DNA of 64,000 nucleotides from assembly GCA_965279515.1 (NCBI GenBank), contig CBDIID010000003.1, forward strand, positions 3,712,001 through 3,776,000, given 5' to 3'. This DNA comes from Turneriella sp. (GTDB lineage Bacteria; Spirochaetota; Leptospiria; Turneriellales; Turneriellaceae). The notes beneath the pieces are model-generated. The model had not been told where the DNA came from. It was given only the letters and a program-made list of their open reading frames with translations, and did no database searches. This document shows, in pieces, positions 22,366-64,000 of this stretch (position 1 is the stretch's first letter; every line of letters begins with the position of its first letter). The position numbers and the translations under genes were made by a program.

Positions 22366-22778
22366 CATCTTAATGGCGGCCAACGTGGATTTTACGCTGA
22401 CGTTTTTTGACGCTTGTGTCATTTATTCAATCTGTAAAGCCGATTTGCGTCAAAAAATGTGGTCGTAGCGGCTCGCGGCGACGCGCGAAAACACACCTCC
22501 CGGTGTGCGCGTCGTCCGCGATCTTTGCCGCGGAGACCCGAGCACGCGAGGAGCTACTGCACCGCAGCGGCGCAGCGCGTAAAATTTGTTGTCTGAAGTA
22601 ATTGCGCCTGTGAGCCCGGGCAAGGAGGCCCGGGCGAATAAAGGATAAGAGATTTTTCCATAAGAGGCCATCGGTTATCTTAACTTGCTACTTTTTGAAG
22701 TTAAACAGACTTTACACCTCGGATATCGTAGTTTTTGATGATTCTCTCGGTATAATTTCTTAGATAAGAATTGAATCC

Positions 22779-23255
22779 ATGGAAATTCCGGTTTTTCTGC
22801 CACTACCGAAAGGCATCACAGGTTTTTCGAACGCAGGCGAGCCTTTCGTAGGCTCTTTGGATAACAAATTCGTAAAATCCCTTGCCTTCTCCATAGATTA
22901 CTCCCAGCATTATAAGCTCTTTGATTTCAAGATGCCTCAGATCAGTGCTAATTATTTCAGGTTAACAATAGAGGATGGTCGGACAAATGATGTTTTCTCA
23001 ATTCTTATCAATGCTCACTATCCTTTTTATGCAGCTGTTACCAAGGAAAGTCAATGGATGAACTTGGTATTTATTGAAGCGCCAACTGCGATTCAAAATC
23101 TTTTCGCACCTCATTTTCAGTATCTTAGTCCCAAAGATTTGGGTCAAATTGTGCAGCCTGAACAGCTTATTTTATTAGGGGAATCAGAGCTGCAGCAAAT
23201 TACCAGTTGGAAGTCGGAACGCATTGGCGACATTGTTTTTAATGGATATGATTAA
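22779..23255 (+). CDS. Hypothetical cassette protein
   Basis: 158-aa ORF filling a cassette. Confidence 0.7.
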   Translation: MEIPVFLPLPKGITGFSNAGEPFVGSLDNKFVKSLAFSIDYSQHYKLFDFKMPQISANYFRLTIEDGRTNDVFSILINAHYPFYAAVTKESQWMNLVFIEAPTAIQNLFAPHFQYLSPKDLGQIVQPEQLILLGESELQQITSWKSERIGDIVFNGYD

Positions 23256-23530
23256 TCGGCCAATGCCGGTCATAGCGTCGGCATGGATGCCGACGGGATA
23301 CAAAGGCGCAATTATTTCAGACAACGTGGAAAATACCCGAATTGCGCCCCCGCGGGTGTAAAGTGTAAATAATCACGGCTTTATGTGACTTTCGCGGGAG
23401 CGCATTTGCCCGAAGCGCCTCGCGGCAAAGCACAGAACAAGCGTCCCGCTTGTGCTTTGTCCGCGATCTTTGGCGCGCAGGGCCGAGCACGCGAGCCAAC
23501 GAAGTGCTCGCGGCGCAGCGGGTATTTTTT

Positions 23531-23724
23531 GTTAGCCGCCGTTACCGGATTCGCGCGGCTGGCGAGCAACCCGAAGGTCAGCGAGATACTGTAGTTCGAT
23601 ATTATTAGTAACCGAGGAGTTGTCGCCAGGATCAAAGGCGTAAGCAGCGAAATCTGGTTGTACTCTCTGATAACAAATCCTCTTTTTCTCCCCTTCGGGC
23701 GCGAAGGAGGTAATGGTGGCTAAC
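23531..23724. repeat. Gene-less cassette, copy 1
   Basis: GTTAGCCGCCGTTACC...GGTAATGGTGGCTAAC, ~194 bp, seven near-identical copies. Confidence 0.85.
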
Positions 23725-23927
23725 GTGGAAAATACCCGAATTGCGCCCGCGCGGGTGTAAAGTGTAAATAATCACGGTTTTATGCGACTTTCGTGGGAGC
23801 GCATTTGCCCGTAGCGCCTCGCGAGCCCGCCAATGCAGGCCCACTGGCCTGCGGGCGTAGCGATCTTCGGCGCGTAGGGCCGAGCACGCGACCCAGCGTA
23901 GCGGTCGCGGCGCAGCGGGTATTTTTT

Positions 23928-24121
23928 GTTAGCCGCCGTTACCGGATTCGCGCGGCTGGCGAACAACCCGAAGGTCAGCTATATACTGTATTTCGATCTT
24001 ATTAGTCACCGAGGAGTTGTCGCCAGGATCAAAGGCGTAAGCAGCGAAATCTGGCTGTATTTTCTGATAAAAAATCCTCTTTTTCTCCCCTTCGGGCGCG
24101 AAGGAGGTAATGGTGGCTAAC
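23928..24121. repeat. Gene-less cassette, copy 2
   Basis: Near-identical to 23531-23724. Confidence 0.85.
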
Positions 24122-24545
24122 GTGGATTTTACGCTGACGTTTTTTGACGCTTGTGTCTTTTATTCATTCTGTAAAGCCGATTTGCGTCAAAAAATGTGGT
24201 CGTAGCGGCTCGCGGCGGCGCGCGAAAACACACCTCCCGGTGTGCGCGTCGTCCGCGATCTTTGCCGCGCAGACCCGAGCACGCGAGGAGCTACGGCACC
24301 GCAGCGGCGCAGCGCGTAAAATTTGTTGTCTGACGTAGTTGCGCCTGTGAGCCCGGCATGGAGGCCGGGCGACTGCAGAAGAAGGCTGCCCAAAAAAATT
24401 CTGTTTGTCCCATGAAGAACAGGATTCACGCCTGAGACGGACAGTTGCTTCATTAGTTAAACGCGGCGCCAATTTCTTGGATGCTAAATGAACTAGTATC
24501 TCACCGCTTTCGGAAATATGTCATGCCGTTTTTTTGGCATAGGGA

Positions 24546-25456: not shown

Positions 25457-26236
25457 CCCGCCGGGCAGCGCGGCCCGGATATTCGCGATAGCATCGCCGG
25501 GATTCTCAAAAAACGTGCGCGTCACGCCATGGATTCGGGTATTGAGGCAAGTAGCGAAGCTATAAAAAACTGCTTCGAAAGCGTTTCTTTGTATGACATG
25601 CTGCCGACCCGGATTTATCACCGGGCCCGCGATGACGCTTGTTTCGGGCTGAAACAGTTTTTTTCTGCGCCGCCTACCGGTTTTGGGCGAAGGTTTCAAA
25701 AGCAGTTCTCTAACTTGCGGTTTCTGCCACCTGATTACGGCGGGTACGCGGGCAGGTTAGCAGACAAGCAGACCTTTCAGGTCTATCTGCGTTCGGTTGG
25801 AATGAATACAGCCCTTTAAAGCCATAAATATCCATAAAGAGTCGTTTTTGCCCATGAAAACAGGATTTACGCCTGAAAAGGTCCGTAGCCTAATCGTCGA
25901 AATGAGTATCAATTTCTTAGATACTTGGTCGCATTTAGTAGCTGGCGCCCGCATGGACGCGGGCGGGAAAAAACAGCGCAACTATGTCAGACAACGTGGA
26001 ATTTACACGAGGTCGATGGTGCGTCGCACAATAAAATTAGGCTTACTTGAAAAGCCGAGTATTAAGCACCATCGATCTGCCGAAGACCGCTCGTTGCGCC
26101 TGACCAAACAAACGTCCCGTTTGTCAGGCGTCAACGATCTTTGCGGTCGAGGCCGAGCACGCGAGGAGCCACGGCACCGCAGCGAGCGCAGCGTGTAAGT
26201 TTTGTTGTGCGACGTTGCCCCGCTGGAAAAAAATGC

Positions 26237-26596: not shown

Positions 26597-26938
26597 GTGC
26601 CATTCGTCGCGGATGAAAGCATAATCTTACGGCAAACGCGCACGGAAATATATTCCGGGGCAATGTTCGCACAACGCGGGTTTTACGAGATTTGCGCCTC
26701 GCGGGTGTAAAGTGCTTTCAACGTGGAATTTACCTGAGGTTGAATGACGCTTCGTTCAACTTTGTGTTTTGTAAGGCCATGTTGCGTCACTCAATCTGCC
26801 CGAAGCGCCTCGCGGCAAAGCACAAACCAAGCGTCCCGCTTGTGCTTTGTCCGCGATCTTCTGGCGCGTAGGGCCGAGCACGCGAGGAGCCACGGCACCG
26901 GAGCGGCGCAGCAGGTAAATTTTGTTGTACGACGTTGT

Positions 26939-27610: not shown

Positions 27611-27845
27611 TGTCGTACAACGTGGAATTTACCTGAGGTTGAGTGACGCTTCGTTCAACTTTGTATTCTGTAAAGCCATTTTTGCGTCACTCAATCTGCC
27701 CGAAGCGCCTCGCGGCAAAGCACAAAACAAGCGTCCCGCTTGTGCTTTGTCCGCGATTTTTGGCGCGTAGGGCCGAGCACGCGAGGAGCTACGGCACCGC
27801 AGCGGCGCAGCAGGTAAATTTTGTTGGGCGAAGTAGCCTTTTCGG

Positions 27846-28502: not shown

Positions 28503-29837
28503 GGTACAATATCAGAACATCGGTAACGAAAAGTCATCACGACATCGGTAACAGTTCTGCCTCAGGCTTTGCCGTGGTTTCCTCCTGATTTGGTGTAAAC
28601 AAATAATTGTTCCGATCGATGTAGCCCAATAGCAGGCTACCGAAGTAGACGTCGATGCGCATGTCGGCGATAAACCGGAGCCCGATCGGGTAGCCGTTAA
28701 AAGAATTGCCGATAAATATCCGGTGCTGCTTGTAGTTGGTGTAACCGCGGTCATTTACGATGCGTACGATGCAATCCTCAGGGTAGGCGGGTAGTACGTC
28801 GCCAGTATACGGAATTTCAGATGGTAGGTAGAACTCTGATGGCGTCCTCATGCCCAGGGCTTCATGCGGTCGCACATTGTTGAAGTCTTCGCGCCACTGA
28901 TCAAACGAAATCTGGTGAAGCTTTAGATCACCGCGAATGCGCCCCTGCAGTTCCGTGCGGATGTCTCTGTGCATACGCTCATGGCCACCATTCTGGGCTG
29001 GCTTTCCCGGATCAATGCGGTCCAGAGAAATTCCCAAGGACAGCCACCAGACTGACAATTTTGTCAGGCCAAAGAGGCCCCACGATGATGCGAAAGGAGT
29101 TCCGTTGTCAGAGCGAATAATTTCCGGCAGACCATAGCGTTTGAAGAGTCTGGCAAAGTGTTGTTTTACATTGGAAATATTGCCCTTTTCCAGTATCTGT
29201 ATCGACAGGATGTACTTACTGTACTCATCGCGAACTGTCAGAGGTTCGCATTTCTCTGCATGTGCAGTATACCACCACCCCTTGAAATCAACCGTCCATA
29301 TGTGATTGGGATGCGTCGCCTTTTCGCGAAGCATCAGCCTCTCTCCGGTTCTGCGGCGCTTCTTTCCTCTTGGCCTTGTCAGACCAGAGCGCGCCAGAAG
29401 GCGATCGACTGTAGGCACTGAAATATCGCCTTTGCGCTCGGGGTAAAGCCTGCAGAAGACCGCATAGATCTTCTTGGCTCCCCAGCGAGGCCTGTTATTC
29501 TTTATGCGAATAATGTCGCAGATTGTTTCTTCGTCAGTGCGGTTCGGATTGCCTCCTGGTTTTCGTGACAACTCCGCCAATCCAGCTAAGCCTTTTTCCA
29601 GAAACCTTGCCTTCCACTTGTACCCTGTCTTGGTGCTGATGCCAAACTCGCGGCACAGCTCTGTGAAACTCTCTACGCCCTCCAGGGCGCGAAAGACAAA
29701 AGATCTTTTCTCTTCCATTTTGGTAACCTCTTTCCACGGCATTTGAGCCCCCTGCCGAAGGCAGGCAAAAGCTCTTTGCGAAGCAAAGTGTTACCGATGT
29801 CTTGATAGAAATGTGTTACCTATGTCGTGATAGTACC
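28503..29837 (-). mobile_element. IS481-family element, copy 1 (1335 bp)
   Basis: Imperfect terminal IRs GGTAC...ACAT(C)GGTAAC, duplicated target TAAG. Confidence 0.92.
28537..29742 (-). CDS. IS481-family DDE transposase
   Basis: MPWKE N-terminus, HTH (ELCREFGISTKTGYKW), WTVDFKG, IRSDNG, QNGGHERMHR, RPHEALG. Confidence 0.93.
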   Translation of the reverse strand: MPWKEVTKMEEKRSFVFRALEGVESFTELCREFGISTKTGYKWKARFLEKGLAGLAELSRKPGGNPNRTDEETICDIIRIKNNRPRWGAKKIYAVFCRLYPERKGDISVPTVDRLLARSGLTRPRGKKRRRTGERLMLREKATHPNHIWTVDFKGWWYTAHAEKCEPLTVRDEYSKYILSIQILEKGNISNVKQHFARLFKRYGLPEIIRSDNGTPFASSWGLFGLTKLSVWWLSLGISLDRIDPGKPAQNGGHERMHRDIRTELQGRIRGDLKLHQISFDQWREDFNNVRPHEALGMRTPSEFYLPSEIPYTGDVLPAYPEDCIVRIVNDRGYTNYKQHRIFIGNSFNGYPIGLRFIADMRIDVYFGSLLLGYIDRNNYLFTPNQEETTAKPEAELLPMS

Positions 29838-30153
29838 TAAGGCTATTTCGCCCAACGTGGATTTTAGGCTGACGTTTTTTGACGCTTGTGTCATTTATTC
29901 AATCTGTAAAGCCGATTTGCGTCAAAAAATGTGGTCGTAGCGGCTCGCGGCGACGCGCGAAAACACACCTCCCGGTGTGCGCGTCGTCCGCGATCTTTGT
30001 CGCGGAGACCCGAGCACGCGAGGAGCTACGGCACCGCAGCGAGCGCAGCGCGTAAAATTTGTTGTCTGAAGTAATTGCGCCTGTGAGCGCGGCTAGGAGG
30101 GCCGCGCGAATTCTGAGTTTAATTGCCTATTACTGGTCATTTCGCGTCGGCAT

Positions 30154-31107
30154 CTACCGGTGTGAGTCTAAGGCGGCGCGGGCTGACTTCTCTTGGTTTG
30201 CGATGTAATCCATAGGATGAAATTCATGGGGCGCCATGGCTTTTTCCTGCATGATCAGCCGATACCCATAGCAGAGCATAGGCGAGTCACCATCGACCAG
30301 ACCGATAGGTCCTTCTGTTTTCAGAGCTTTATTTTCCAGGCTGTAGATAATATCGGTTTCACTGCGTGCTTCGCGTATGATAAGTTTAGCTTCATTGCGC
30401 TTCCAAGTACACGACCTATCAACGCGGTTTCCATTATAGGTCAAGAGGGAAACGAGCCGGCATCTGCCATTTCTTTCTATATTCAGATAACGGTGTTCGG
30501 TTGAATTGCTCTCATCTAAATAAAGGCCAATAAATCCGTCGGTAAACGTCTGAAGGTATCGCGATCTGAGCCTGTCGCCCAGCTCTGCGGATATTGGAAA
30601 ATCTTCAAATGAATCACCTGCCTGTCGGAAGAATTTGATACCCGAGAGAGCCGTATCGGACCATTTCGCGCCTTTATAGACGGAAACGATTCTCAAGCTG
30701 ACCTGTTTACCCTTCAGAGTATCTTTCAAATCTATATTTTGTCTGCCCGCGGTGTCCTTAAGCGTATAGACAGTCTCGCTGCCACCTTCCGCAGAGAATC
30801 CGATTTCTTTAACGCGATTATTGAGCGGGAAAAATTTCGCATCGGAGTAACCATTCCAGACAGCTATCCGATGAATTTTTGCTTTCTTATCAAATAAAAA
30901 GGTGACGGTCTCGCCGATGCCGTCGTCGGCCTTGCCTTCAACCCAACTTGCTTGGGCGCCTTCACGAAGCAGCCACTCTGCACGGTATTTACCTGTCTCA
31001 GGTTCATGCTCGCTTGAGGCTTGTATTCCTGTGACTAAGGGAGGCATCTTTTCACCACAGCTAGGCAAGAAGACGAAAAGCATAAAAAAGGAACCGAATC
31101 GTAGCAT
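30154..31107 (-). CDS. Lipoprotein with discoidin/NADase-type glycan-binding-like domain
   Basis: Lipobox LPSC, SWVEG..DDGIGE, NGY...NNRVK, SVYKG.KWSDTALS. Confidence 0.65.
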   Translation of the reverse strand: MLRFGSFFMLFVFLPSCGEKMPPLVTGIQASSEHEPETGKYRAEWLLREGAQASWVEGKADDGIGETVTFLFDKKAKIHRIAVWNGYSDAKFFPLNNRVKEIGFSAEGGSETVYTLKDTAGRQNIDLKDTLKGKQVSLRIVSVYKGAKWSDTALSGIKFFRQAGDSFEDFPISAELGDRLRSRYLQTFTDGFIGLYLDESNSTEHRYLNIERNGRCRLVSLLTYNGNRVDRSCTWKRNEAKLIIREARSETDIIYSLENKALKTEGPIGLVDGDSPMLCYGYRLIMQEKAMAPHEFHPMDYIANQEKSARAALDSHR

Positions 31108-31677
31108 AGTCACCCTCCAATCCAACGGGTGACCCATTACCCAAGGAGATAATCAGTCAAACATTAAACTGAACCGCCACATTATTAAATATGGCTTTTG
31201 AAGCGGGTAACTACCCTTAAACTGGTCATTGTGTCACGATAGCTTCACCGCGCCGACAGGAGGTCGGCGGATATCAAAGGCGCAATTATTTCAGACAACG
31301 CGGAATTTACCTGAGGTCGATAGTGCGTCGCGTAATAAATGCAGTCTTCACTCGAAAGCTGCGTTTTGATGCACTATCGATCTGCCGCAGGTCGCCTCGT
31401 TGCGCCCGACCAAACAAACGTCCTGTTTGTCGGGCGTCAACGACTCTTAAGCGACCGGAGGCCGAGGACACGAGCCAACGAAGTGCTCGCGCCCGCAGCA
31501 GGTAAATTTTGTTCTCTGACGTAGTTGCACTTATGAGCCCGGGCATGGAGGGCCGGGCGACCATTACTAAAATGCTGTTGTTCAAAAGACTAAAAAAAGC
31601 TTTTTTCAAGATTCTGGGTTAAATTAGCTAAGGATGAAAGTCCTTGACGCATCTAATTATTCATTCCAGAGGTCTAT

Positions 31678-31917
31678 ATGAGTATCAATGAATATGTGGT
31701 TATTGACCCTGATATCTGTAACGGCAAACCGACCGTAGCCGGTACTCGAATAACTGTCCAAACGGTTCTTGAATTCTTGGCCGTAGGGGAATCGATTGAG
31801 ACCATCGTAAAGAATTATCCTAGGCTTACGACCGTTAGTATTCAAGCATGTATCCAATTTGCCGCAGACATGGCGGGACACGAATACAGCATGCATAAAA
31901 TTGCACACGCTGGATGA
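31678..31917 (+). CDS. DUF433 antitoxin
   Basis: IDPDICNGKPTVAGTRI motif. Confidence 0.9.
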   Translation: MSINEYVVIDPDICNGKPTVAGTRITVQTVLEFLAVGESIETIVKNYPRLTTVSIQACIQFAADMAGHEYSMHKIAHAG

Positions 31918-32252
31918 AAATACTTATCGATGAAAATCTACCCGAAGACATTTCTTGCTGGAAGTCTGATGATTTTATCCATGCCAAGGCATTAGGTGCA
32001 AAAGTCAGCGATGGCGAAATTTGGAATTTTGCCCTTCAAAATAACCTGATAATAGTCAGTAAGGATACAGATTTCTCAAACCGAATCTTGGTCTCAAATC
32101 CACCGCCTCGCGTAATTCATATGCGGATTGGCAATATGCGTTTTCAAGTATTGGATGAATTTATTACACAAAATTGGAAAAAAATTCTGCAACTGTCTCA
32201 AAAACATAAACTCGTGAATGTCTACAGAGATTCGATAGAAGGTATCAACTGA
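31914..32252 (+). CDS. DUF5615 PIN-like toxin
   Basis: LIDENLP...SDGEIW...VSKDTDF, overlapping the antitoxin stop. Confidence 0.88.
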   Translation: MKILIDENLPEDISCWKSDDFIHAKALGAKVSDGEIWNFALQNNLIIVSKDTDFSNRILVSNPPPRVIHMRIGNMRFQVLDEFITQNWKKILQLSQKHKLVNVYRDSIEGIN

Positions 32253-32541
32253 CTTATTTGCCTTAGATGCGCCGCCATGGATGGCGGCGGAGCACTTAGT
32301 GCAACTATGTCAGAGAACGTGGATTTTACGCTGACGTTTTTTGACGCTTGTGTCATTTATTCAATCTGTAAAGCCGATTTGCGTCAAAAAATGTGGTCGT
32401 AGCGGCTCGCGGCGACGCGCGAAAACACACCTCCCGGTGTGCGCGTCGTCCGCGATCTTTGCCGCGGAGACCCGAGCACGCGACCCAACGAAGTGGTCGC
32501 GGCGCAGCGCGTAAAATTTGTTGGCTGAAGTGCCAGGTTCG

Positions 32542-45052: not shown

Positions 45053-45075
45053 AGTCTATTGGATAGAAGCTCCGA

Positions 45076-52958: not shown

Positions 52959-54293
52959 GGTTCAATATCAGAACATCGGTAACGAAAAGTCATCACGACA
53001 TCGGTAACAGTTCTGCCTCAGGCTTTGCCGTGGTTTCCTCCTGATTTGGTGTAAACAAATAATTGTTCCGATCGATGTAGCCCAATAGCAGGCTACCGAA
53101 GTAGACGTCGATGCGCATGTCGGCGATAAACCGGAGCCCGATCGGGTAGCCGTTAAAAGAATTGCCGATAAATATCCGGTGCTGCTTGTAGTTGGTGTAA
53201 CCGCGGTCATTTACGATGCGTACGATGCAATCCTCAGGGTAGGCGGGTAGTACGTCGCCAGTATACGGAATTTCAGATGGTAGGTAGAACTCTGATGGCG
53301 TCCTCATGCCCAGGGCTTCATGCGGTCGCACATTGTTGAAGTCTTCGCGCCACTGATCAAACGAAATCTGGTGAAGCTTTAGATCACCGCGAATGCGCCC
53401 CTGCAGTTCCGTGCGGATGTCTCTGTGCATACGCTCATGGCCACCATTCTGGGCTGGCTTTCCCGGATCAATGCGGTCCAGAGAAATTCCCAAGGACAGC
53501 CACCAGACTGACAATTTTGTCAGGCCAAAGAGTCCCCACGATGATGCGAAAGGAGTTCCGTTGTCAGAGCGAATAATTTCCGGCAGACCATAGCGTTTGA
53601 AGAGTCTGGCAAAGTGTTGTTTTACATTGGAAATATTGCCCTTTTCCAGTATCTGTATCGACAGGATGTACTTACTGTACTCATCGCGAACTGTCAGAGG
53701 TTCGCATTTCTCTGCATGTGCAGTATACCACCACCCCTTGAAATCAACCGTCCATATGTGATTGGGATGCGTCGCCTTTTCGCGAAGCATCAGCCTCTCT
53801 CCGGTTCTGCGGCGCTTCTTTCCTCTTGGCCTTGTCAGACCAGAGCGCGCCAGAAGGCGATCGACTGTAGGCACTGAAATATCGCCTTTGCGCTCGGGGT
53901 AAAGCCTGCAGAAGACCGCATAGATCTTCTTGGCTCCCCAGCGAGGCCTGTTATTCTTTATGCGAATAATGTCGCAGATTGTTTCTTCGTCAGTGCGGTT
54001 CGGATTGCCTCCTGGTTTTCGTGACAACTCCGCCAATCCAGCTAAGCCTTTTTCCAGAAACCTTGCCTTCCACTTGTACCCTGTCTTGGTGCTGATACCA
54101 AACTCGCGGCACAGCTCTGTGAAACTCTCTACGCCCTCCAGGGCGCGAAAGACAAAAGATCTTTTCTCTTCCATTTTGGTAACCTCTTTCCACGGCATTT
54201 GAGCCCCCTGCCGAAGGCAGGCAAAAGCTCTTTGCGAAGCAAAGTGTTACCGATGTCTTGATAGAAATGTGTTACCTATGTCGTGATAGTACC
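52959..54293 (-). mobile_element. IS481-family element, copy 3 (1335 bp)
   Basis: Near-identical to the other copies; one end reads GGTTC; duplicated target CGCA. Confidence 0.92.
52993..54198 (-). CDS. IS481-family DDE transposase
   Basis: Protein identical to the other two copies. Confidence 0.93.
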   Translation of the reverse strand: MPWKEVTKMEEKRSFVFRALEGVESFTELCREFGISTKTGYKWKARFLEKGLAGLAELSRKPGGNPNRTDEETICDIIRIKNNRPRWGAKKIYAVFCRLYPERKGDISVPTVDRLLARSGLTRPRGKKRRRTGERLMLREKATHPNHIWTVDFKGWWYTAHAEKCEPLTVRDEYSKYILSIQILEKGNISNVKQHFARLFKRYGLPEIIRSDNGTPFASSWGLFGLTKLSVWWLSLGISLDRIDPGKPAQNGGHERMHRDIRTELQGRIRGDLKLHQISFDQWREDFNNVRPHEALGMRTPSEFYLPSEIPYTGDVLPAYPEDCIVRIVNDRGYTNYKQHRIFIGNSFNGYPIGLRFIADMRIDVYFGSLLLGYIDRNNYLFTPNQEETTAKPEAELLPMS

Positions 54294-54637
54294 CGCAATT
54301 ATCTCAGACAACGCGGAATTTACCTGACGTTTGGTGACACATGTGTCATTATTTTAATCAGGAAAGCCGTCTTGTGTCACCAAATGTGCCCGGAGCGCCT
54401 CGCGGCAAAGCACAAAACAAGCGTCCCGCTTGTGCTTTGTCCGCGATCTCCGGCGCGTAGGGCCGAGCACGCGAGGAGCCACGGCACCGCAGCGAGCGCA
54501 GCAGGTAAATTTTGTTGTCTGAAGTAATTGCGCCTGAGAGCACGGGCATGGAGGCCCGTGCGACAAAGATTAAATTGTCATAACAGCGGAATCTCTACTT
54601 TTCGCGGACAAAGATTTTGCAGGAAATTAGAGGTATT

Positions 54638-57600
54638 CTACGCTTTGGGACTATCTAACGTTACCTTGCAGAGAACAGCAAGCTGAGATACTAATTCAAC
54701 GTTTTCTTCATTTCCTTGCACTTTTGTCAGGAGTGACTGTAGGGGCTTCCTGATTACATCAGGAAAATGCTCCTGAGGCTTGAAAGCGTTATTCGCATCA
54801 GGTGAGAGTAAAAAAATCATCCATTTAATGTGTTCGAAGTCTTCCTTTTTAATGAAATCTTCGATGGCTTCCTGTATGGTTTTTACTTCTTTGAAAAGCT
54901 CCTCTTTGACAAAATAATTCTTATTGATATCAAGAAATGCCGCTGGAACTCTAAATGCGTTATCGCGCAATATATTTGTCATACTGGATGCGTAATGTTT
55001 CTGGAAACTGGAGCCCATGGCGTCTATAATTCCTGTCCAATTACTTTCCGTCCATTTGCCCCACTTGGGAGCTTTGAATACTCCCTGCATGTATTTCGTA
55101 ATTGCATCAAGATAGTTATTTTCAAGGCAAAAATCTGGTTTTTTCTTTTTTACGAGCGTAGGAATGGCGCGCAGATATGACTCTTCCTCAAAAGTCTTAA
55201 GCCATTCGGCTTGAGTAATATTACTCAAATCTCTGGCTATCTTTGCTAGTAGTGTTGGGTTGTTTGTTTGATGTGCTACGTAGTAGAATACCCCAGGAAA
55301 GGCTGAACATGTTCGCGTTTCTATTAGAGCTTGATTTTCTAAGTCACCAAACTCTATGAGTAATGATGCAACTTTCTCGCGCAGATTTTGTGTTGTGACG
55401 GAAAGATAAGACTGGTAACGATCAAATGCATTGTCGATCCGGAAGATTTCTGCTGTTTCCAATTCATTTAGCACCGCTTCGATAATTACGCCAGCCTTTT
55501 TACAAGCCGTTTCGCTTGCTATGTCCCATGGGAGGGACCAGAGTTGGTATCTCTTAATTTCCAAGAGGAGTTTAGTCGTTTCTGTATCATCTTGACTCGA
55601 CCAAATCCCCTTAATATCAGATAATCCCTGGGAACTGAGAGGGAAGTTGCCGGCAGGGTCAGAAATTTGAGTCGTTTGAATTTTCGACTTGAAAACGAAA
55701 GCATAGAAAATCGCGCCATGAACGAGGTCCGCTGCCTTCCGTTGAGTCAGAAGATTATAATAGGCCGGATTTTTCGCAATGGCAATTGCGTCCTCTGAAG
55801 GGCCTTCAGGCCGAATGCACAGCTGATTAATAACCTGAAATACTTGATTCTGCTGTGCTGGATTGCTGGAATTTTGCCAAACAATATAGGACTGGCAGGC
55901 CTTCAAGATTGGTGACCAATCGGCCGCGATGCCAGATTTTTGTACATAAAAGATCACATCCAATACCGGCGGGAATGGCTGACCTTGTTTTATGGCTGCC
56001 GCAAGTTCGGTAAAAAGGGTATTTGATGGCTGGATGAGTTTCGGAAAAACAATCTCCTCTGGAGTAATATGTCTTGTCCATAACAAAAGACCAGCGAGAT
56101 TTAATTCCTGAATTCTTTGCGACTTTGGAACTTTGGATTTCGCCTGTAGTAATTGCAAGTTTTCCTGAAGGCAATCGGCCATGAACGTCAGATTGCCGCC
56201 TTGTTGCGGGTCTAAATTAAAGCGCAAAGTCCTGATCAAGTGCTCATACATTTCGACTAAGAATTTTTCCTCCTGTCCGCAGATACGCAACAGAGCCAAA
56301 TAGGACTCCCTGTTTTCACTTGATAAGGGAGTCAGAGTGACCCGATCCAGAATTAGAGAGCTCACGTTTTTGATAAAAATATTCAATGTAAATTGCTTCT
56401 GTGCTGCAAAAAGCTCTAATGGTTTCGCGGCTGCCAAGGCGTATTCTAGAGATATTTCCGTGTGCTCAAAATGATAGTTCAAGATACCATGGAATGTCGA
56501 ACCGTGAATATTGGACAGTTCTAGGAGTCTTTCTTGGTTGCTATTGTTTAAGGCATCCGAAATCTCGGGTTGAAGAAGCAATTGCTCACCTTTTGCCGGA
56601 GAAACGCCGAAAACCAAGCCGGCAAGATCCTTGAAGTAACCTTCTGACAATGCTAATTGGTGCTTGGGATTTACCAAGCGCCTTTCAACGAGGCTGGCAC
56701 GGATTTTTTGGGTATCCCAAAAATCCAATTCCCGCCAGCAGGCGTAATAAATAATACTGGAAATATGCACCTGATCGCCCCATAGAGATGCTAGAAAACC
56801 AATTTGGTTAATGACGTTTTTAATTTCTCTAGGGGTCGGCATGTCCCCAATGCTATTCCGGGTTGTTCGGATGATCTTTGTTACCAGCTCAATTTCCTCA
56901 TCACTCCAGTTAATCAGGCTGTCTTTTGCAAGTTCTTTGGTGAATTTCTCCCAACCAGAGAAAATTGGTTTTGGCACATCGAGGCGCAGTTGAAAACACT
57001 TATCGAAGAATGACTTTGAAATTTCCTGCTGAACCCTTGATTTCGATCGCTCGTTCCACTGTTTTTCTAAGCCATTTTTGTCGTAGGGAACAATGATCCA
57101 AATCTTATCAAAGAGATCTTTTCTGCGAACGGCATCGCCTCGGACTTGCAGAAATGTTTGGAGGGTGGACCAAACTTTGATAAAGTCTTCCTTATCGATT
57201 CTATCCAGATTATCTACGACAAGAACCATTTTCTTTAGTTCAGGGTTGCTCAGCACGATACTTAAAATTTGCTCGAAATATACTTCAAATTCAACCGATG
57301 ATCTCTCATCGCTCTCAGAAACCTCCTGTGAAACTTTCTGTACAGAGTCATTCTGGAGAAAGCGCCAGTTTCTCTTGTGGAATATTTTTCGTGCTTTTTT
57401 GCCAAGCACGACCTTTCCAAATACCTTAAAAATACCGCGTTGGATAACATGGAACAAGAATTTCAAGGCCAAGATAATGACTGGTCCCGATATTGTGAGC
57501 CAACCCAGAATCGTTAAAATCAGTATATTTCGATCAGAAACGTATTCGTGTTTTGAAAGATATACCATACAAGCAGTCCCGATGGGTATAAAAAACGCGG

Positions 57601-58045
57601 CTGTCGCTACAGCCTTGCCCAACATTGTTGTTCCTTGGAATGTCTTAATGCGAGCGCTTTTCTTCCGATTCCCGACTATTCGGTCCAGACGTTTTAACTG
57701 GAGGGTCTCCTTATCGGATACGTAAGGTTTTACGCTGGCGATAATCGTTTCCAAGAATATCCGTCTTAGGGGATCTCCCTCGTGAGCCCAAGCATCGAAT
57801 TGTATGACAGGGATCTTTAGATTTGCATCCTTGATTTTTTTTGATAGAATAGAAATAACTGTTGATTTTCCAGAGCCCCATGAGCCTTCTAGGCCAATAG
57901 AGATACTTGGCGATTCCGATGTAACCAGCGTAAAAAGCGCAGCGGCCAATTTTTCATGTGTTTTGTCTTCAAAGGCATCGCTTTCTACAGTCCGTTCAGG
58001 CAGAATCTTGAATCGATATTTCGAAGTGGCTGTGAGGCTTTCCAT
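54638..58045 (-). CDS. KAP-family P-loop NTPase with long helical C-terminal extension
   Basis: IGLEGSWGSGKS Walker A, FDAWAH, two TM helices inserted, VVDNLDRI Walker B, FFDKCFQ, TPREIK. Confidence 0.88.
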   Translation of the reverse strand: MESLTATSKYRFKILPERTVESDAFEDKTHEKLAAALFTLVTSESPSISIGLEGSWGSGKSTVISILSKKIKDANLKIPVIQFDAWAHEGDPLRRIFLETIIASVKPYVSDKETLQLKRLDRIVGNRKKSARIKTFQGTTMLGKAVATAAFFIPIGTACMVYLSKHEYVSDRNILILTILGWLTISGPVIILALKFLFHVIQRGIFKVFGKVVLGKKARKIFHKRNWRFLQNDSVQKVSQEVSESDERSSVEFEVYFEQILSIVLSNPELKKMVLVVDNLDRIDKEDFIKVWSTLQTFLQVRGDAVRRKDLFDKIWIIVPYDKNGLEKQWNERSKSRVQQEISKSFFDKCFQLRLDVPKPIFSGWEKFTKELAKDSLINWSDEEIELVTKIIRTTRNSIGDMPTPREIKNVINQIGFLASLWGDQVHISSIIYYACWRELDFWDTQKIRASLVERRLVNPKHQLALSEGYFKDLAGLVFGVSPAKGEQLLLQPEISDALNNSNQERLLELSNIHGSTFHGILNYHFEHTEISLEYALAAAKPLELFAAQKQFTLNIFIKNVSSLILDRVTLTPLSSENRESYLALLRICGQEEKFLVEMYEHLIRTLRFNLDPQQGGNLTFMADCLQENLQLLQAKSKVPKSQRIQELNLAGLLLWTRHITPEEIVFPKLIQPSNTLFTELAAAIKQGQPFPPVLDVIFYVQKSGIAADWSPILKACQSYIVWQNSSNPAQQNQVFQVINQLCIRPEGPSEDAIAIAKNPAYYNLLTQRKAADLVHGAIFYAFVFKSKIQTTQISDPAGNFPLSSQGLSDIKGIWSSQDDTETTKLLLEIKRYQLWSLPWDIASETACKKAGVIIEAVLNELETAEIFRIDNAFDRYQSYLSVTTQNLREKVASLLIEFGDLENQALIETRTCSAFPGVFYYVAHQTNNPTLLAKIARDLSNITQAEWLKTFEEESYLRAIPTLVKKKKPDFCLENNYLDAITKYMQGVFKAPKWGKWTESNWTGIIDAMGSSFQKHYASSMTNILRDNAFRVPAAFLDINKNYFVKEELFKEVKTIQEAIEDFIKKEDFEHIKWMIFLLSPDANNAFKPQEHFPDVIRKPLQSLLTKVQGNEENVELVSQLAVLCKVTLDSPKA

Positions 58046-58840
58046 AATGTGCTGATCTATTTCACGTTATGCTGACATTCCGTAGTTATTTTTTTTTAAT
58101 TTGGAAAGCATATAGCTTGCCCTACGCCATGTCAAATAATAGACTTATGCATAAATAAAAGCTATTGGCAAATTCGGGGACTCGCGCTTGCTTGAAGTTT
58201 GCTGATTGCGCCATTGCAGATTGGTTATTACGCGTATAAGACGCCTGGCTGTAAAGCCAGCTTAGCGCACGTTGAAGCTATTAGGACTGGTTTTTTACGC
58301 TCGTGATTTCTTAGGGCTGGCCATTTTATTAGCCTGAGAATTACATTCTGTAGACGTGCGATTAGGGACCAAGCACGCATTTTTCAGGAGCATTATCCTG
58401 CATATCCGGAGTCTCAACTTGGTCAATGCGCCGACACGAGGTCGGCGAATAACAGAGGCGCAATTATTTCAGACAACGTGGATTTTACGCTGACGTTTTT
58501 TGACGCTTGTGTCATTTATTCAATCTGTAAAGCCGATTTGCGTCAAAAAATGTGGTCGTAGCGGCTCGCGGCGACGCGCGAAAACACACCTCCCGGTGTG
58601 CGCGTCGTCCGCGATCTTTGCCGCGGAGACCCGAGCACGCGAGGAGCTACGGCACCGCAGCGGCGCAGCGCGTAAAATTTGTTCTCTGCCGTAACCGCTT
58701 CGGATAGCCCGGTCATGGATGGCCGGGCGTAAACAGGTCGATTGAGGATCGATCAATTCCATAACGCTTTAAATTAAGGTTAAAAGGATGTTTACGCTAT
58801 TTCGGTAAAGAATCCTTAGGTTACGCGGAGTTAAATTTTC

Positions 58841-59374: not shown

Positions 59375-59838
59375 TTTGGGTTTTCTTGGCATAAAGTGCA
59401 ATTAAATGTCTGCGCCCACACGATGTGGGCGAGACCGAATGAGAACTATTGCGGTTATGGCAGAGAACGCGGAATTTACCTGACGTTTGGTGACACTTGT
59501 GTCATTAATTCAATCAGAAAAGCCGCCTTGTGTCACCAAATGTGCCCGGAGCGCCTCGCGGCAAAGCACAAAACAAGCGTCCCGCTTGTGCTTTGTCCGC
59601 GATCTTCTGGCGCGTAGGGCCGAGCACGCGAGGAGCCACGGCACCGCAGCGAGCGCAGCAGGTAAATTTTGTTGTCTGAAGTGATTGCGCCTGTGAGCCC
59701 GGGCAAGGAAGCCCGGGCGACAAGTTTAGGAACTGTGACGTCAGAAATTAGTTGGCTTAGCGACCTATTATTTAACTTTATGATTGCCAATTTATAATTG
59801 CTTTAATACTCTAGTCAAATCGGTATCACAGGTAGGAA

Positions 59839-60558: not shown

Positions 60559-60911
60559 TGTAGAACTCTGCGGCAGGAAAATGGACTTGCGAAGGAAAAG
60601 AAGCCGCCTCTACTTCTAATACTGAGTGAACAAAGCATTAATATCAAGATATGGAATAGCGCCGACACGGAAGTCGGCGGATGACAAAGGCGCAATCATT
60701 TCAGACAACGTGGAAAATACCCGAATTGCGCCCCCGCGGGTGTAAAGTGCAAATAAACACGGTTTATGCGACTTTCGTGGGAGCGCATTTGCCCGTAGCG
60801 CCTCGCGAGCCCGCCAATGCAGGCCCATTGGCCGGCGGGCGCAGCGATCTTCGGCGCGTAGGGCCGAGCACGCGAGCCAACGAAGTGCTCGCGGCGCAGC
60901 GGGTATTTTTT

Positions 60912-61105
60912 GTTAGCCGCCGTTACCGGATTCGCGCGGCTGGCGAACAACCCGAAGGTCAGCTATATACTGTAGTTCGATCTTATTAGTCACCGAGGAG
61001 TTGTCGCCAGGATCAAAGGCGTAAGCAGCGAAATCTGGCTGTACTCTCTGATAACAAATCCTCTTTTTCTCCCCTTCGGGCGCGAAGGAGGTAATGGTGG
61101 CTAAC
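60912..61105. repeat. Gene-less cassette, copy 7
   Basis: Near-identical to 23531-23724. Confidence 0.85.
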
Positions 61106-61322
61106 GTGGATTTTACGCTGACGTTTTTTGACGCCTGTGTCATTTATTCAATTTGTAAAGCCGATTTGCGTCAAAAAATGTGGTCGTAGCGGCTCGCGGC
61201 GACGCGCGAAAACACACCTCCCGGTGTGCGCGTCGTCCGCGATCTTTGCCGCGAAGACCCGAGCACGCGAGGAGCTACGGCACCGCAGCGGCGCAGCGCG
61301 TAAAATTTGTTGTGTGCCGTAA

Positions 61323-62132
61323 TTATGAGCAGGGCCCGGTACCAAAATCATCCGAAGTAGATAATTCTTTTCCGTTAAGGATGAACCGCTCTGGTTCTTT
61401 GGACTCAGGCAAATCTTTACCTTCTAGATTGGACAGCATAATCTTTTGTTTCGGGTTCTTCATATCGCAACCTTGAAAAGAGTATGATTTATCCTTGTGC
61501 CGTGTAATTATACCGTATAATAACTTAATCTTGCCATCTTTTAGCCCGTCAGCCGTCACGGCATGAGTCTGATTTGATAAGTTTATGACAATCGTCTTGA
61601 GTTCGTTTGTTAGAAATGTAACTTTGCCAACCTCGATATCAATTCTTTGCTGCAAAAGCCAACTCATGTGGCTTACGGAATATCTGCCGAATTTAACATC
61701 AAAAATTCGGGATATTGGTATTACCGGAGTTTTTAGTTTGCCGTCTTCATAATAGAGAAGGGCGGCTGCATTCCAAGAGTCACCAATTATTTCTGGCCAG
61801 TCATTAATAAAGAGCACCTTATTTCCTGATTCGTTAATATACCCTTTCATTGTCTGTGTGTAAGGTTGGTGCATATTCTGCAACAATTCAGAGGCAGTGA
61901 CTTTAAGTTCTTTAATTAGGGCCTTAGTATACTGTTCCCCCTCCGAATCATGGAGGTCATAGAGCTTCTTGCCAGTTTTCTGCTCAATTAATCTCCATAG
62001 ATGCTGATTCTTATTATCTCTCACTAAGCAATGAAGCTTCGTGGTATTACAGAAATTAAATGTGTGCCGCGGTTGATCTGAAAATATCTTCCAAAACGGA
62101 ATAAGGCAGATTAGGAATAAAATAAGTCTCAT
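61323..62132 (-). CDS. Hypothetical exported protein
   Basis: Signal-like N-terminus. Start and stop lie at the cassette arms. Confidence 0.7.
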   Translation of the reverse strand: MRLILFLICLIPFWKIFSDQPRHTFNFCNTTKLHCLVRDNKNQHLWRLIEQKTGKKLYDLHDSEGEQYTKALIKELKVTASELLQNMHQPYTQTMKGYINESGNKVLFINDWPEIIGDSWNAAALLYYEDGKLKTPVIPISRIFDVKFGRYSVSHMSWLLQQRIDIEVGKVTFLTNELKTIVINLSNQTHAVTADGLKDGKIKLLYGIITRHKDKSYSFQGCDMKNPKQKIMLSNLEGKDLPESKEPERFILNGKELSTSDDFGTGPCS

Positions 62133-62376
62133 AATTATGGCACACAACGTTGGATTTTACGCTGACGTTTTTTGACGCTTGTGTCATTTAATCAATCTGT
62201 AAAGCCGATTTGCGTCAAAAAATGTGGTCGTAGCGGCTCGCGGCGACGCGCAAAAACACACCTCCCGGTGTGCGCGTCGTCCGCGATCTTTGCCGCGAAG
62301 ACCCGAGCACGCGAGGAGCTACGGCACCGCAGCGGCGCAGCGCGTAAAATTTGTTGGCTGAAGTTGCCAACTCGGC

Positions 62377-62928
62377 TCAGTTAGCTCCGTGCAATGCTCT
62401 TTGAGCAATCTGGTAGGCTTTTGAACGGCTTATGCCGTTTGCGAAATCTTGATACAGTTCATGATCGACTTCTTTCAATTCTATTCTCGGCCGCTGGCCA
62501 GGAACTTGAAAATGAGCCACCGTTTGAAGATTTATTGTATCTGGGTAATACGGTAATGTATTGCAAAACCAACCAAAACTCTGATAACCTGAATTATCTG
62601 CATTGAAATTATCTACATACCATTCAAAGTTGGTTTTACTTTGCGAAACCCAAACACCCCAAGTAAAAGGTATTGGATAGTCAATAATCGGGATTTCTAA
62701 AATTACACGAATAAAATAATCATCTGGTGAAATTGTGCATAAATCACTATTTAATTGTCCAAGCGAATTCTGGTCCTCTTCGGACAAAGCCGAATAGTAA
62801 GCTGGGGCAGCGTAGCTGAAACTCGGATCACCTTTGTGCTCTTTTCCGCATTCTATGCATTTGAACGTAAATGCATCGAGGCCTTTATTCTCTTCAGAGG
62901 TTTGATGCCTTTTTGAGTCTTCTTTCAT
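62377..62928 (-). CDS. DUF2199-family protein
   Basis: CIECGKEH...SDLC...FIRVILEIPI...WGVWVS.S...RP. Confidence 0.8.
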   Translation of the reverse strand: MKEDSKRHQTSEENKGLDAFTFKCIECGKEHKGDPSFSYAAPAYYSALSEEDQNSLGQLNSDLCTISPDDYFIRVILEIPIIDYPIPFTWGVWVSQSKTNFEWYVDNFNADNSGYQSFGWFCNTLPYYPDTINLQTVAHFQVPGQRPRIELKEVDHELYQDFANGISRSKAYQIAQRALHGAN

Positions 62929-63184
62929 GTTTTTGGCAATTTCAGCCAACGTGGAATTTACACGAGGTCGATGGTGCGATGCACAATAAAGGCGGGCTTA
63001 TGTAGAAAGCCGCGTATTAAGCACCATCGATCTGCCGCAGACCGCTCGTTGCGCCTGACCAAACAAACGTCCCGTTTGTCAGGCGTCAACGATCTTTGCG
63101 GTCGGAGGCCGAGCACGCGAGGAGCCACGGCACCGCAGCGAGCGCAGCGTGTAAATTTTGTTGGCTGAAGTGACGGGTCGTGGC

Positions 63185-63802
63185 CTATTTGTGAACTTTC
63201 TTCTTAACAACAAACCCTCTGTCATCAAGAAATAGGGTGGCCATTTTGTCTTTGTAGGCAAAAAGAATGGCATTAGTTGAACGGTTGATGGTCGCCATTT
63301 TGTTCACTTCATCGCTCAGGATATGTGTCGGAAATATGACATTACCGCTCGGTTCACCGAGGCTTTTTTTAATTTGATTCAGGTGCGTCTTGCCTTCAAT
63401 GATTTTATCTGTTTCTGAAATGTCAAAATCTGTGGTTGAATCTGAAAAACTTGAAAAGAACAGAAAGCCGGTGACAAAGTTACCCACAAACTCAACCCGA
63501 AGTGACTTGAAGCCGCTGCCTGGCTTTTCATTGTCTTTGTAGAGCCATTCAAAAACATCATGCCTTATGCCATTGTAAGTACCCTGAACCTTCAACGTCG
63601 GTTCACCAAACCTGGAAATGGTTTCATTTAGTGTCGTTACGCCAATCTTGAGTTCGCGCCAATTGTCATGTTTAAAATTACGTGCGGTAGTCGCGCATGA
63701 GAAAATAGACAATGCTGAGATGGTAAGAATGATTGCCATCAAAGGAGAGCTAAAATGATTCAATTTGTGTCGCATAATCATTACAAATGCCTTTCCCGTC
63801 AT
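63185..63802 (-). CDS. SmpA/OmlA(BamE)-like repeat lipoprotein
   Basis: Lipobox IFSC and two G.T....I...GEP repeats. Confidence 0.65.
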   Translation of the reverse strand: MTGKAFVMIMRHKLNHFSSPLMAIILTISALSIFSCATTARNFKHDNWRELKIGVTTLNETISRFGEPTLKVQGTYNGIRHDVFEWLYKDNEKPGSGFKSLRVEFVGNFVTGFLFFSSFSDSTTDFDISETDKIIEGKTHLNQIKKSLGEPSGNVIFPTHILSDEVNKMATINRSTNAILFAYKDKMATLFLDDRGFVVKKKVHK

Positions 63803-64000
63803 TTCAGCCAACGTGGAATTTACCTGAGGTCGATAGTGCATCGCACAATAAATACAGTCTTCATTCGGAAGCCGCGGCTTGATGCACTATCGATCTGCCG
63901 TAGGTCGCCTCGTTGCGCCCGACCAAACAAACGTCCCGTTTGTCGGGCGTCAACGACTCTTAGGCGACCGGAGGCCGAGGACGCGAGCCAACGAAGTGCT

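Follow-up and report, generated by a model that had tools for sequence, protein, structure and literature searches.

The Vibrio cholerae superintegron, with its Vibrio cholerae repeats (VCR), holds many promoterless cassettes of one or two genes in a single locus, in an array of the 100-200-cassette class. Its species-homogeneous folded sites run from AAC to GTT and carry paired R and L boxes, crossover takes place at the triplet, the bottom strand is the better-folding one, and attI lies beside a divergent tyrosine recombinase gene with a LexA-type box. Many of the cassette genes are unknown, and toxin-antitoxin cassettes stand in reverse to the array, as is typical of large chromosomal integrons. 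Here we describe a repeat array that, taken together with its counterparts in relatives, resembles the superintegron in these traits, in a stretch of 64,000 nucleotides from the spirochaete Turneriella sp. (assembly GCA_965279515.1, contig CBDIID010000003.1, positions 3,712,001 to 3,776,000). We call this whole stretch the window; in our numbering it is G000:C3:3712001-3776000, where G000 is the source genome and other G labels denote its relatives. Close homologues, at 54-61% identity, likewise bear the name Turneriella sp. The array appears to be a sedentary cassette array of the integron type, integron-like in every respect that sequence can show, and it differs from described integrons in the dimensions of its sites and in the recombinase that very probably serves it.

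The attC sites of described integrons are 57-141 bp long, most of those in chromosomal integrons measuring 120-129 bp, according to sections of PMC5371416; for their variable terminal structure, a section of PMC4889954 gives 20-100 nt. The integrase IntI carries a specific insertion (I2), described in passages of Escudero et al. (PMC4792948) as a 20-residue domain that accommodates extrahelical bases. Passages there and in PMC8138268 call I2 necessary for integron function and present it as the innovation by which a Xer-like enzyme became able to work on cassette sites folded from single strands. A 2013 abstract names Treponema as the only spirochaete clade with integrons (PMC3607928). The entry for Turneriella parva DSM 21527 in a 2016 IntegronFinder table reads NA for CALIN (clusters of attC sites without integrase), In0, complete integrons and number of attC sites, and table S1 of 2022 gives 0, 0, 0 for the same genome. 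Our literature search found no description of a system such as the present one and nothing that joins Turneriella to integrons.

A two-box search of the window (AAC, a spacer and an A/T-rich L box, followed within 300 nt by the complementary L box, a spacer and GTT) returned 37 complete sites between 22382 and 63162. They span 162-218 bp, and 35 of them exceed 200 bp, the default upper attC size of IntegronFinder. A 38th site begins at 63810 and is cut by the window end (63810-64000; whole site G000:C3:3775810-3776026, 217 bp). Mean G+C content is 56.9% for the sites (38, including the cut one), against 45.2% for the 37 inter-site segments and 52.0% for the left flank, and a repeat search of 20000-64000 found 29 direct-repeat families. 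These figures agree with an initial annotation made from the letters of the window alone, which had counted 37 complete GC-rich AAC...GTT repeats, most of them above 200 bp, separated by AT-richer segments and running off the window edge. The cores it had listed as unusual (GTTGTCT, GTTGGCT, GTTCTCT and GTTAGCC) are indeed present, along with others, but they are not what sets these sites apart: the oddity lies in site size, branched interior, long outer stem and enzyme.

All of the sites are on the minus strand, and the plus strand of the window is the better-folding (bottom) strand. From left to right they occupy 22382-22590 (209 bp), 23323-23533 (211 bp), 23722-23930 (209 bp), 24119-24327 (209 bp), 25993-26206 (214 bp), 26720-26926 (207 bp), 27619-27825 (207 bp), 29854-30063 (210 bp), 31297-31513 (217 bp), 32316-32522 (207 bp), 33166-33377 (212 bp), 34160-34368 (209 bp), 34557-34772 (216 bp), a short variant at 36601-36762 (162 bp), 38289-38506 (218 bp), 40127-40337 (211 bp), 40527-40734 (208 bp), 41354-41558 (205 bp), 42180-42390 (211 bp), 43090-43300 (211 bp), 44002-44209 (208 bp), 44398-44605 (208 bp), 45467-45681 (215 bp), 46289-46503 (215 bp), 47187-47401 (215 bp), 47996-48204 (209 bp), 48803-49009 (207 bp), 49783-49992 (210 bp), a variant at 50746-50931 (186 bp) whose first arm is short, 52020-52228 (209 bp), 54310-54516 (207 bp), 58475-58683 (209 bp), 59466-59673 (208 bp), 60707-60914 (208 bp), 61103-61311 (209 bp), 62146-62355 (210 bp) and 62948-63162 (215 bp). 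Rfam at its gathering threshold has no match in the window.

The array had initially been treated on its own; a search with the conserved end motif of the sites corrects this, since it is one of two in the genome. The motif has 134 matches on the plus strand of C3 (73 in 90840-169916, 51 in 3734590-3804588 and 10 elsewhere) and 3 more on the minus strand, so that 124 of 137 fall in two loci. Array 1 (about 80 kb) and array 2 (about 71 kb) have the same orientation, contain 123 two-box sites together and take up roughly 150 kb of the 4.9-Mb genome. The window covers about 60% of array 2, which reads on the minus strand, extends from window position 22382 (G000:C3:3734382) to about 3805400 and ends at an attI-like junction 29.4 kb past the window. 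In five relatives the site pattern has 8-220 matches, and its reversed control none.

Three sites of the window (those starting at 22382, 23323 and 27619), folded singly as single-stranded DNA, are more stable than shuffled sequences, with z-scores of -4.5 to -6.0. The plus strand forms the AAC/GTT core, an asymmetric internal loop (a 3-4-nt bulge opposite 1 nt), an 11-bp L stem and a three-armed interior. We aligned 78 sites: the window supplied 36, the part of array 2 beyond it 10, G002 13 and G011 19; the 162-bp variant was excluded. The AAC and GTT triplets do not vary in any of the 78. RNAalifold finds 34 consensus pairs, 25 of them with compensatory changes; the L stem contributes 11 pairs, 6 of which are compensatory, with 99.3% of its cells paired. 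Over the whole structure, the share of paired cells is 97.8%; shuffling lowers it to 76.8%, with none of 500 shuffles reaching the observed value, and shifting the partners by 1-3 columns lowers it to 32-47%. The covariation score is 0.509 against 0.03-0.09 for the shifted controls. The number of further pair types, unlike the other measures of covariation, does not exceed the shuffles (304/500). The outer arms are thus self-complementary and covarying, as had been read from the window.

Of all 123 two-box sites, 114 fold more stably as the plus strand and 7 as the minus strand (means of -58.95 and -55.77 kcal/mol, respectively, for the two strands), partly because G.T pairs (8/229 and 18/220) become C.A mismatches on the opposite strand. 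A single extra L-stem base occurs in some site types only. Beside the L' box, all 78 aligned sites from the three species carry a near-invariant block, CCGAGCACGCGA...GCGCAGC (alignment columns about 178-190 and 213-219; window 22538-22575, for example), recognisable on the other strand as GCTGCGC...GCTCGG in the roughly 230-bp sites of another family of the order. Because sequence is kept here inside a site otherwise conserved only in structure, the block suggests a protein-binding element. At window position 26669, 51 nt ahead of the complete site at 26720, lies an extra half-site of AAC and L box (GCACAACGCGGGTTTTAC), which pairs with the start of the cassette of that site (GTTGTGC); the site at 26720 seems to be composite or rearranged.

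The pairing does not stop at the cores, where the initial annotation had let the arms end. In 108 of 121 segments, the first 4 nt behind GTT are complementary to the last 4 nt ahead of the next AAC, compared with 17 of 123 when both flanks of the same site are taken and 278 of 1974 for random pairs. This complementarity between the two ends of each cassette extends over a median of 17 nt beyond AAC and GTT (one mismatch allowed, G.T counted), and in 106 of 108 cassettes a G.T pair occupies its position 8. If the triplet is the crossover point, as in integrons, the bases that directly flank a triplet on the outside are part of the adjacent cassette.

End pairing alone is ambiguous as to which site belongs to which body, and we assigned the unit because duplicated bodies travel with the preceding site. 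Among 61 pairs of homologous bodies within G000, the preceding site is the more alike in 53 and the following one in 8. For three clean duplicates free of insertion sequences (IS), identity is 1.00, 0.98 and 1.00 in the preceding site and 0.69, 0.69 and 0.92 in the following one; base by base, the identity spans from the left AAC of the preceding site to the left AAC of the next. Cassettes shared between species behave alike: the three most similar (97-99.5% and 89%) have preceding sites at 1.00, 0.96 and 0.95 and following sites at 0.72, 0.70 and 0.73, and over all 15 between-species pairs the preceding site is closer in 11 and the following in 4. The cassette is therefore taken to be a site plus the body that follows it on the plus strand, that is, a gene body and then its own attC when read on the minus strand. 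This direction is opposite to the one implied initially, and since cassettes read on the minus strand, the integrase side should lie to the right. The crossover would fall at the AAC of the plus (bottom) strand, in keeping with the canonical integron rule, a placement no finer than the invariant TTGTT/AAC stretch.

Cassette content and order are almost wholly different between species. G011 has 217 pattern matches, all on one strand (reversed control 0), and its two-box sites, at least 200, cover 3457630-3667997, about 210 kb; G002 has 49 sites over 49 kb. Comparing 120 bodies from G000, 197 from G011 and 48 from G002, we found only 15 between-genome homologous pairs (at least 70% of length), and none of them has a homologous neighbour. 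Even G002 and G011, whose recombinases are almost identical, share 7 bodies, none syntenic. The cassette-order polymorphism that the initial annotation had proposed to look for in related genomes is thus present between species, and the fixed gene order that would have spoken against its reading is not seen among these three. With one site as the BLAST query, the repeat family turns up in 11 of the 13 other genomes belonging to the genus and in a single further genus of the family; the remaining 18 genera sampled give no match. Metagenome contigs from groundwater, wastewater and sludge (one run each) extend over the site positions within 40000-49999 with a likeness of at least 90%, and over two cassette bodies (42313-43098 and 41801-42031), which points to relatives with the same site family in those three samples; for the bodies without such cover, these data are no evidence either way.

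In the relatives, the arrays end beside a tyrosine recombinase gene. Its G000 orthologue encodes 366 amino acids (aa; G000:C3:2926096-2927193, minus strand, PF00589). The family is present in 13 of 13 genomes of the genus and adjoins the array wherever contiguity allows, with array-end orthologues in G002, G011, G005, G007, G013, G012 and G003. In G002 the gene lies at 1372447-1373511 on the plus strand, the last site ending at about 1371720, and in G011 at 3455169-3456248 on the minus strand, with sites from 3456712 upward. In several fragmented assemblies it stands 0.3-2 kb from the array-side contig end, as expected because repeats break assembly. The gene is divergent from the cassettes, and a junction of the AAC|GTYTATTCC type is found 180-230 bp upstream of it in G002, G011, G004, G007, G006 and G013. 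After the last AAC, G002 and G011 continue with the non-site sequence GTTTATTCCCTGAATGGCGGG, and G004, G007 and G006 with GTCTATTCC... instead. This conserved boundary between AAC and non-site DNA is an attI-like junction. The architecture recurs in a second family of the order (G029 and G025), where an orthologue lies beside sites of about 230 bp in AT-rich DNA that BLAST does not detect.

Both arrays of G000 keep an attI-like right end, CAGACAAC|GTCTATTAGCTGAATTGCG... at C3:~170675 for array 1 and GCACAAC|GTCTATTATCTGCATTGCG... at C3:~3805400 for array 2. No recombinase gene follows either junction, and none is found within 4 kb of either array. The initial annotation had advised looking beyond the right edge of the window for a recombinase and attI: the side was right and the attI-like junction is there, but the gene is not beyond the edge in this genome. 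It retains 68 bp of its upstream region, including a box discussed below, directly after a hydrolase gene. A rearrangement may have displaced it, most simply one inversion of about 878 kb between about 2927262 and 3805530; the corresponding alignment supports the attI core and the box but is poor between them, and the inversion finds no confirmation in the flanking synteny with G002. The CALIN-like state of the G000 arrays would then be secondary, as the relatives show the full layout.

Is the enzyme an IntI? Under the model TIGR02249 (cut-off 265 bits), no canonical IntI is found in G000, where the best piece scores 93 bits, or in 40 relatives. The search itself works: among 301 genomes sampled from the phylum, 29 have a full-length IntI that passes this threshold (0 of 45 Leptospira-like ones). 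G000 encodes exactly four PF00589 proteins, two of them Xer-like (312 and 305 aa) and the others of 366 and 301 aa. The 366-aa protein reaches 196 bits against a cut-off of 220 with NF040815 (XerA-like), 170 against 335 with TIGR02224 (XerC), 158.5 against 329.6 with TIGR02225 and 161 in two pieces against 265 with TIGR02249. Among solved structures its best sequence match is Pyrococcus XerA (4a8e, 117.8 bits), to which it aligns unbroken. Against VchIntI4 (2a3v) it aligns in two pieces, residues 101-271 to IntI4 12-181 and residues 295-366 to IntI4 246-317. Only 24 residues stand here for IntI4 181-246, so that about 41 residues at the I2 position have no counterpart. The recombinase with an IntI-specific insertion that the initial annotation expected thus gives way to an enzyme lacking it.

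The AlphaFold model of the 366-aa protein (34 sequences; mean predicted local distance difference test, pLDDT, 87.8) has a beta-hairpin and no helix at residues 272-292. Its N-terminal extension of about 95 aa includes a confident three-helix domain (residues 1-62) and a proline-rich linker. Foldseek ranks VchIntI4 2a3v first (E 3.6e-16) and XerA next. The catalytic R, K, HxxR, H and Y are kept in 11 of 11 orthologues, and the N-terminal extension is poorly conserved in sequence. A C-terminal SPL tail is common to the 366-aa protein and IntI, and orthologues share with IntI an N-terminal SAM-like domain of the PF13495 type. In a tree of 34 rows and 272 columns, with the two Xer genes of G000 as outgroup, the IntI sequences form a clade (100/100) without the array-linked family, which itself groups at 94/95; IntI, the array-linked family, XerA-like proteins of the candidate phyla radiation (CPR) and Leptospira homologues form a 92/93 clade, and the tree does not resolve the order among them.

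The other non-Xer protein, of 301 aa (G000:C3:2781225-2782130; TIGR02249 149 bits), was considered as the integrase and rejected: its family occurs in only 7 of 13 genomes of the genus, was not found in the array-bearing G005 and G013 and lies far from the arrays in G000, G002 and G011. Members of this family, of about 290-300 aa, have an insertion of about 13 residues at the position of the IntI insertion, and in G025 a homologue (36% identity; L038, G025:C14, 2749-3614) separates the array from the gene of the 366-aa type and has the same orientation as the cassettes. A wider contig search for related loci gave 79 distant loci in many phyla, with 28-47% identity and none from this genus, which we did not use. 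At the left, ilvD side of the window, also considered for the integrase, only ilvD and an IS remnant are found; this option was dropped once the duplicates gave the opposite orientation.

The upstream region offers a link to the SOS response. In G000 the 366-aa gene is preceded by GTTCTATTTTTGTTCTA, and near-identical boxes occur in G001, G006, G002 and G011. On the G000 chromosome, the 17-nt box GTTC-N7-GTTC with up to 3 substitutions has 4 matches: those before lexA, a radical-SAM gene and the recombinase (G000:C3:4316039, 4249240 and 2927216, respectively) and a weaker one 221 nt away from a TetR-like gene. The lexA product, of 211 aa, matches Pfam Peptidase_S24 (2.5e-20) and LexA_DNA_bind (2.8e-08). 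GTTC-N7-GTTC, the form that LexA boxes take in alpha-proteobacteria, is a candidate for that role in this spirochaete of the Leptospira class, and because the recombinase shares it with lexA, SOS control of the recombinase is suggested. Such control has been described for integron integrases, according to a passage of PMC4792948 (citing Guerin 2009).

Of the features that define an integron, the AAC/GTT hairpin sites, the joining of cassettes at the crossover and, in the relatives, attI beside a divergent integrase are present; the IntI insertion and the usual site dimensions are absent. We consider it very likely that the cassettes move by site-specific recombination at the AAC core, with the 366-aa recombinase as their cognate enzyme. 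In the mechanism that we propose, a LexA-controlled tyrosine recombinase related to IntI and XerA would cut and join at the AAC of the bottom strand, folded as single-stranded DNA in the cell. It would excise cassettes as circles and reinsert them at attI or at other sites; in the excised circle, the two cassette ends would add an outer stem of about 17 bp with a G.T wobble at position 8. In G000, a rearrangement would have parted the recombinase from the array, and IS insertions would have truncated the distal array ends. The divergent superintegron, or integron-like tyrosine-recombinase system, that the initial annotation had proposed is supported in this form by the core-bounded modules, by the junction and recombinase of the relatives and by the turnover of cassettes.

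Several observations weigh against this reading. The recombinase lacks I2, which passages of PMC4792948 and PMC8138268 call essential. In G000 some 878 kb separate its gene from array 2, and the gene has no adjacent attI; the same holds for the closest relative, G001. Because it is displaced and without an adjoining attI, current activity in G000 is unproven. The adjacency of gene and array within the genus is inherited, so that seven genomes are not seven independent observations. Leptospira-like homologues (34-40% identity) have no arrays nearby at the 3 of 3 loci examined, one of which has short repeats inside the coding region. The tree leaves the relation of the array-linked family to IntI unsettled: because it includes only six IntI sequences, from one phylum and five of them near-identical, it would exclude nesting in this IntI sample and little more. 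The end-pairing test failed in 13 of 121 segments; these are attributed to IS insertions and missed sites, several containing IS copies or a probably missed site. Orientation is only moderately biased, the longest open reading frame (ORF) being on the minus strand in 70 segments and on the plus strand in 40, with none in 11. Finally, no excised circle or excision junction was seen; the four sequencing runs compared, all of them in the form of contigs, yield joints whose short sides lie within repeated sites and which cannot show excision.

One alternative is that the arrays are fossils of the CALIN kind. A canonical IntI would have been lost in the ancestor of the group, the 366-aa gene would be an unrelated Xer-like paralogue, and change would come only from homologous recombination, IS elements and deletion. 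Canonical IntI does exist elsewhere in the phylum (29/301) and is not found above the TIGR02249 cut-off in G000 or the 40 relatives; both G000 arrays stand without a recombinase within 4 kb and carry IS elements at their distal ends. Yet a frozen relic would not differ in content and order even between G002 and G011, where 7 shared cassettes include none in synteny, and the AAC core is the precise end point of shared as well as duplicated cassettes. Seven genus-mates preserve the spacing between recombinase and attI along with the divergent arrangement, and in two genomes of a second family orthologues adjoin arrays with sites that BLAST cannot pick up, so far have they diverged. Every arm still shows covariation, and a box in common with lexA is consistent with an integrase under SOS induction. 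We regard a fossil array as very improbable.

A second alternative accepts recombination and assigns it to another enzyme, either the housekeeping XerC/XerD-like pair (312 and 305 aa) or the 301-aa protein, acting on the folded hairpins. XerCD is known to act on folded phage DNA, G000 encodes four PF00589 proteins, and since its arrays have no local recombinase, whichever enzyme acts there must work in trans. The 301-aa protein, with its 149 bits on TIGR02249 and the co-oriented G025 homologue between the 366-aa-type gene and the array, is one such candidate, but its detection in only 7 of 13 genomes, the failure to find it in the array-bearing G005 and G013 and its distance from the arrays in G000, G002 and G011 contrast with a 366-aa family found in 13 of 13 and beside the array wherever contiguity allows; we hold this alternative to be very improbable. 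The last alternative needs no recombination system: the sites would be structured intergenic elements, such as repetitive extragenic palindromes or bacterial interspersed mosaic elements (REP/BIME-like), terminators or small-RNA genes, spread by other means. They are GC-rich and fold strongly, a 188-bp ORF-less unit among the cassettes is highly repeated and folds well, and Rfam, with no matches, names no known element. Such elements would not make segment ends complementary (108/121), would not bound duplicates exactly at a conserved triplet, would not end at an attI-like junction beside a divergent tyrosine recombinase, and would not have 124 of 137 end-motif matches confined to two loci in G000; this is the least probable of the three.

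Together the site family and the insertion-less enzyme, if it serves the arrays, appear to form a variant absent from known integron descriptions. Compared with sedentary integrons, the sites here are 205-218 bp long with three covarying arms and an invariant block, the outer stem, with its fixed G.T wobble, continues for about 17 bp past the triplet, and the 3-4-nt bulge opposite 1 nt takes the place of the central spacer and extrahelical bases; the integrase lacks about 41 insertion residues and gains a roughly 95-aa N-terminal extension. IntI, as represented by VchIntI4, is its best structural match, with core-binding and catalytic domains that align and the SPL tail in common, but the insertion region here is a beta-hairpin without helix, and IntI occupies its own 100/100 clade. 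XerA-like proteins (NF040815; 4a8e, 5hxy) are the best sequence match and also lack the insertion; the present enzyme differs in falling below their cut-off, in its extra N-terminal domain and in being tied to hairpin cassette arrays, whereas XerA acts on dif-like duplex sites for chromosome resolution. The arrays of G000 are far larger than typical CALINs. They resemble CALINs, as portions of Cury et al. 2016 (PMC4889954) define them, in having no nearby recombinase gene, but the relatives show the full layout with a non-canonical integrase.

We find the evidence evenly balanced on a further proposal, that this is a separate, undescribed integron lineage. Its LexA-controlled XerA/IntI-like recombinase, with an extra three-helix N-terminal domain, would never have had I2 or would do without it and would recombine three-armed hairpins of 208 nt. 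The strand would be chosen by the bulge and by the fixed G.T in an outer stem of about 20 bp rather than by extrahelical bases, with CCGAGCACGCGA perhaps an accessory binding site. The lineage would be order-wide, with arrays of at least 200 cassettes, and may be a branch of a wider I2-less class invisible to current tools.

A working cassette system without I2 would be either a second solution or an earlier stage, and the origin of integrons would become testable. The store of G011, with its 200 or more sites spread across 210 kb, is comparable in size to the largest integrons. The initial annotation had suggested that standard models could miss such sites: the two IntegronFinder tables, empty for a named Turneriella genome, agree with the outcome, and size and core sequence as its cause were that annotation's own conjecture. 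Integron censuses and cassette-discovery screens may thus overlook whole clades. A structure-specific system with long, information-rich sites could also serve as a tool.

The contents of the array resemble those of a chromosomal integron, which the many unfamiliar genes and the reversed toxin-antitoxin pairs fit. Many cassette products match no family; others belong to cupin, GFA, PhyH and several DUF families (Pfam). The toxin-antitoxin pairs are on the plus strand, opposite to the array direction: RelB/YafQ at 42396-43027 (RelB 4.1e-11, YafQ_toxin 1.1e-34) and BrnT/BrnA at 43423-43946 (BrnT_toxin 2.4e-24, BrnA_antitoxin 3.9e-07). By its Pfam domains, a DUF433/DUF5615 (PIN-like) pair at 33504-34090 (plus strand) is probably also a toxin-antitoxin system; a similar pair occupies 49111-49715, a lone DUF5615 gene 31914-32249, and a Gp49-like/helix-turn-helix (HTH) pair at 50058-50721 (plus strand) looks like a HigB-type toxin-antitoxin system. 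Three larger cassette genes on the minus strand have defence-like or toxin-delivery-like domains: a NADase_transloc domain of the F5/8 type (30157-31137), DUF7380 with DUF4209 (34798-36591) and a KAP-family P-loop NTPase of 1135 aa (54641-58045; KAP_NTPase 6.9e-27).

The commonest cassette has a body of 188 bp with no ORF of 50 aa or more, which occurs in 11 intact copies genome-wide and always follows a site of the AAAATACCC type. In the window it lies at 23534-23721, 23931-24118, 34369-34556, 40338-40526, 44210-44397 and 60915-61102. Folded as RNA, it has z-scores of -3.8 on the plus strand and -2.4 on the minus strand, and a scan of 23300-24400 for the sigma-70-like promoter consensus gave 0 sites. 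G011 has four identical short cassettes, spaced at 459 bp, adjoining attI. Such short ORF-less cassettes could be small RNA, promoter or regulatory cassettes.

The chromosomal flank at the distal end of array 2 is ilvD, for dihydroxy-acid dehydratase (20136-21980, minus strand; NF009103 1183.9 bits against a cut-off of 710). The same gene, with the same NF009103 score, flanks the array in G002 (L023 13178-15022), where a degraded IS copy lies between array and ilvD. The chromosomal integrons of Xanthomonas are reportedly located next to ilvD as well, and the array abuts it in both G000 and G002; unlike in Xanthomonas, ilvD is here at the distal and not the integrase end, with an IS remnant between, and coincidence is possible. 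A membrane-protein gene that adjoins ilvD in G002 is found in G000 a few genes from array 1. The two arrays of G000 may therefore be halves of one, because ilvD (array 2) and this gene (array 1) adjoin each other in G002.

The window holds three intact copies of an IS481-family element of 1335 bp with a 401-aa transposase (Pfam rve, rve_3, LZ_Tnp_IS481), all on the minus strand, at 28503-29837, at 36939-38273, inside a short ORF-less cassette, and at 52959-54293. Their right ends stop 16, 15 and 16 nt, respectively, before the next AAC. A 25-nt remnant of such a right end (22341-22365, plus strand), with the terminal motif of the intact copies, precedes the first site by 16 nt and marks the truncated distal end of array 2; array 1 likewise starts within a site cut by an IS copy. 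In 4 of 4 window cases the right end thus falls 15-16 nt before a site AAC, inside the outer stem, and target duplications are of about 4 bp. Every one of the 7 chromosomal copies found with a 60-mer falls within one array or the other. The sites appear to be the target of this IS481-family element; the IS1111-attC elements of classical integrons, of a different IS family, offer a parallel.

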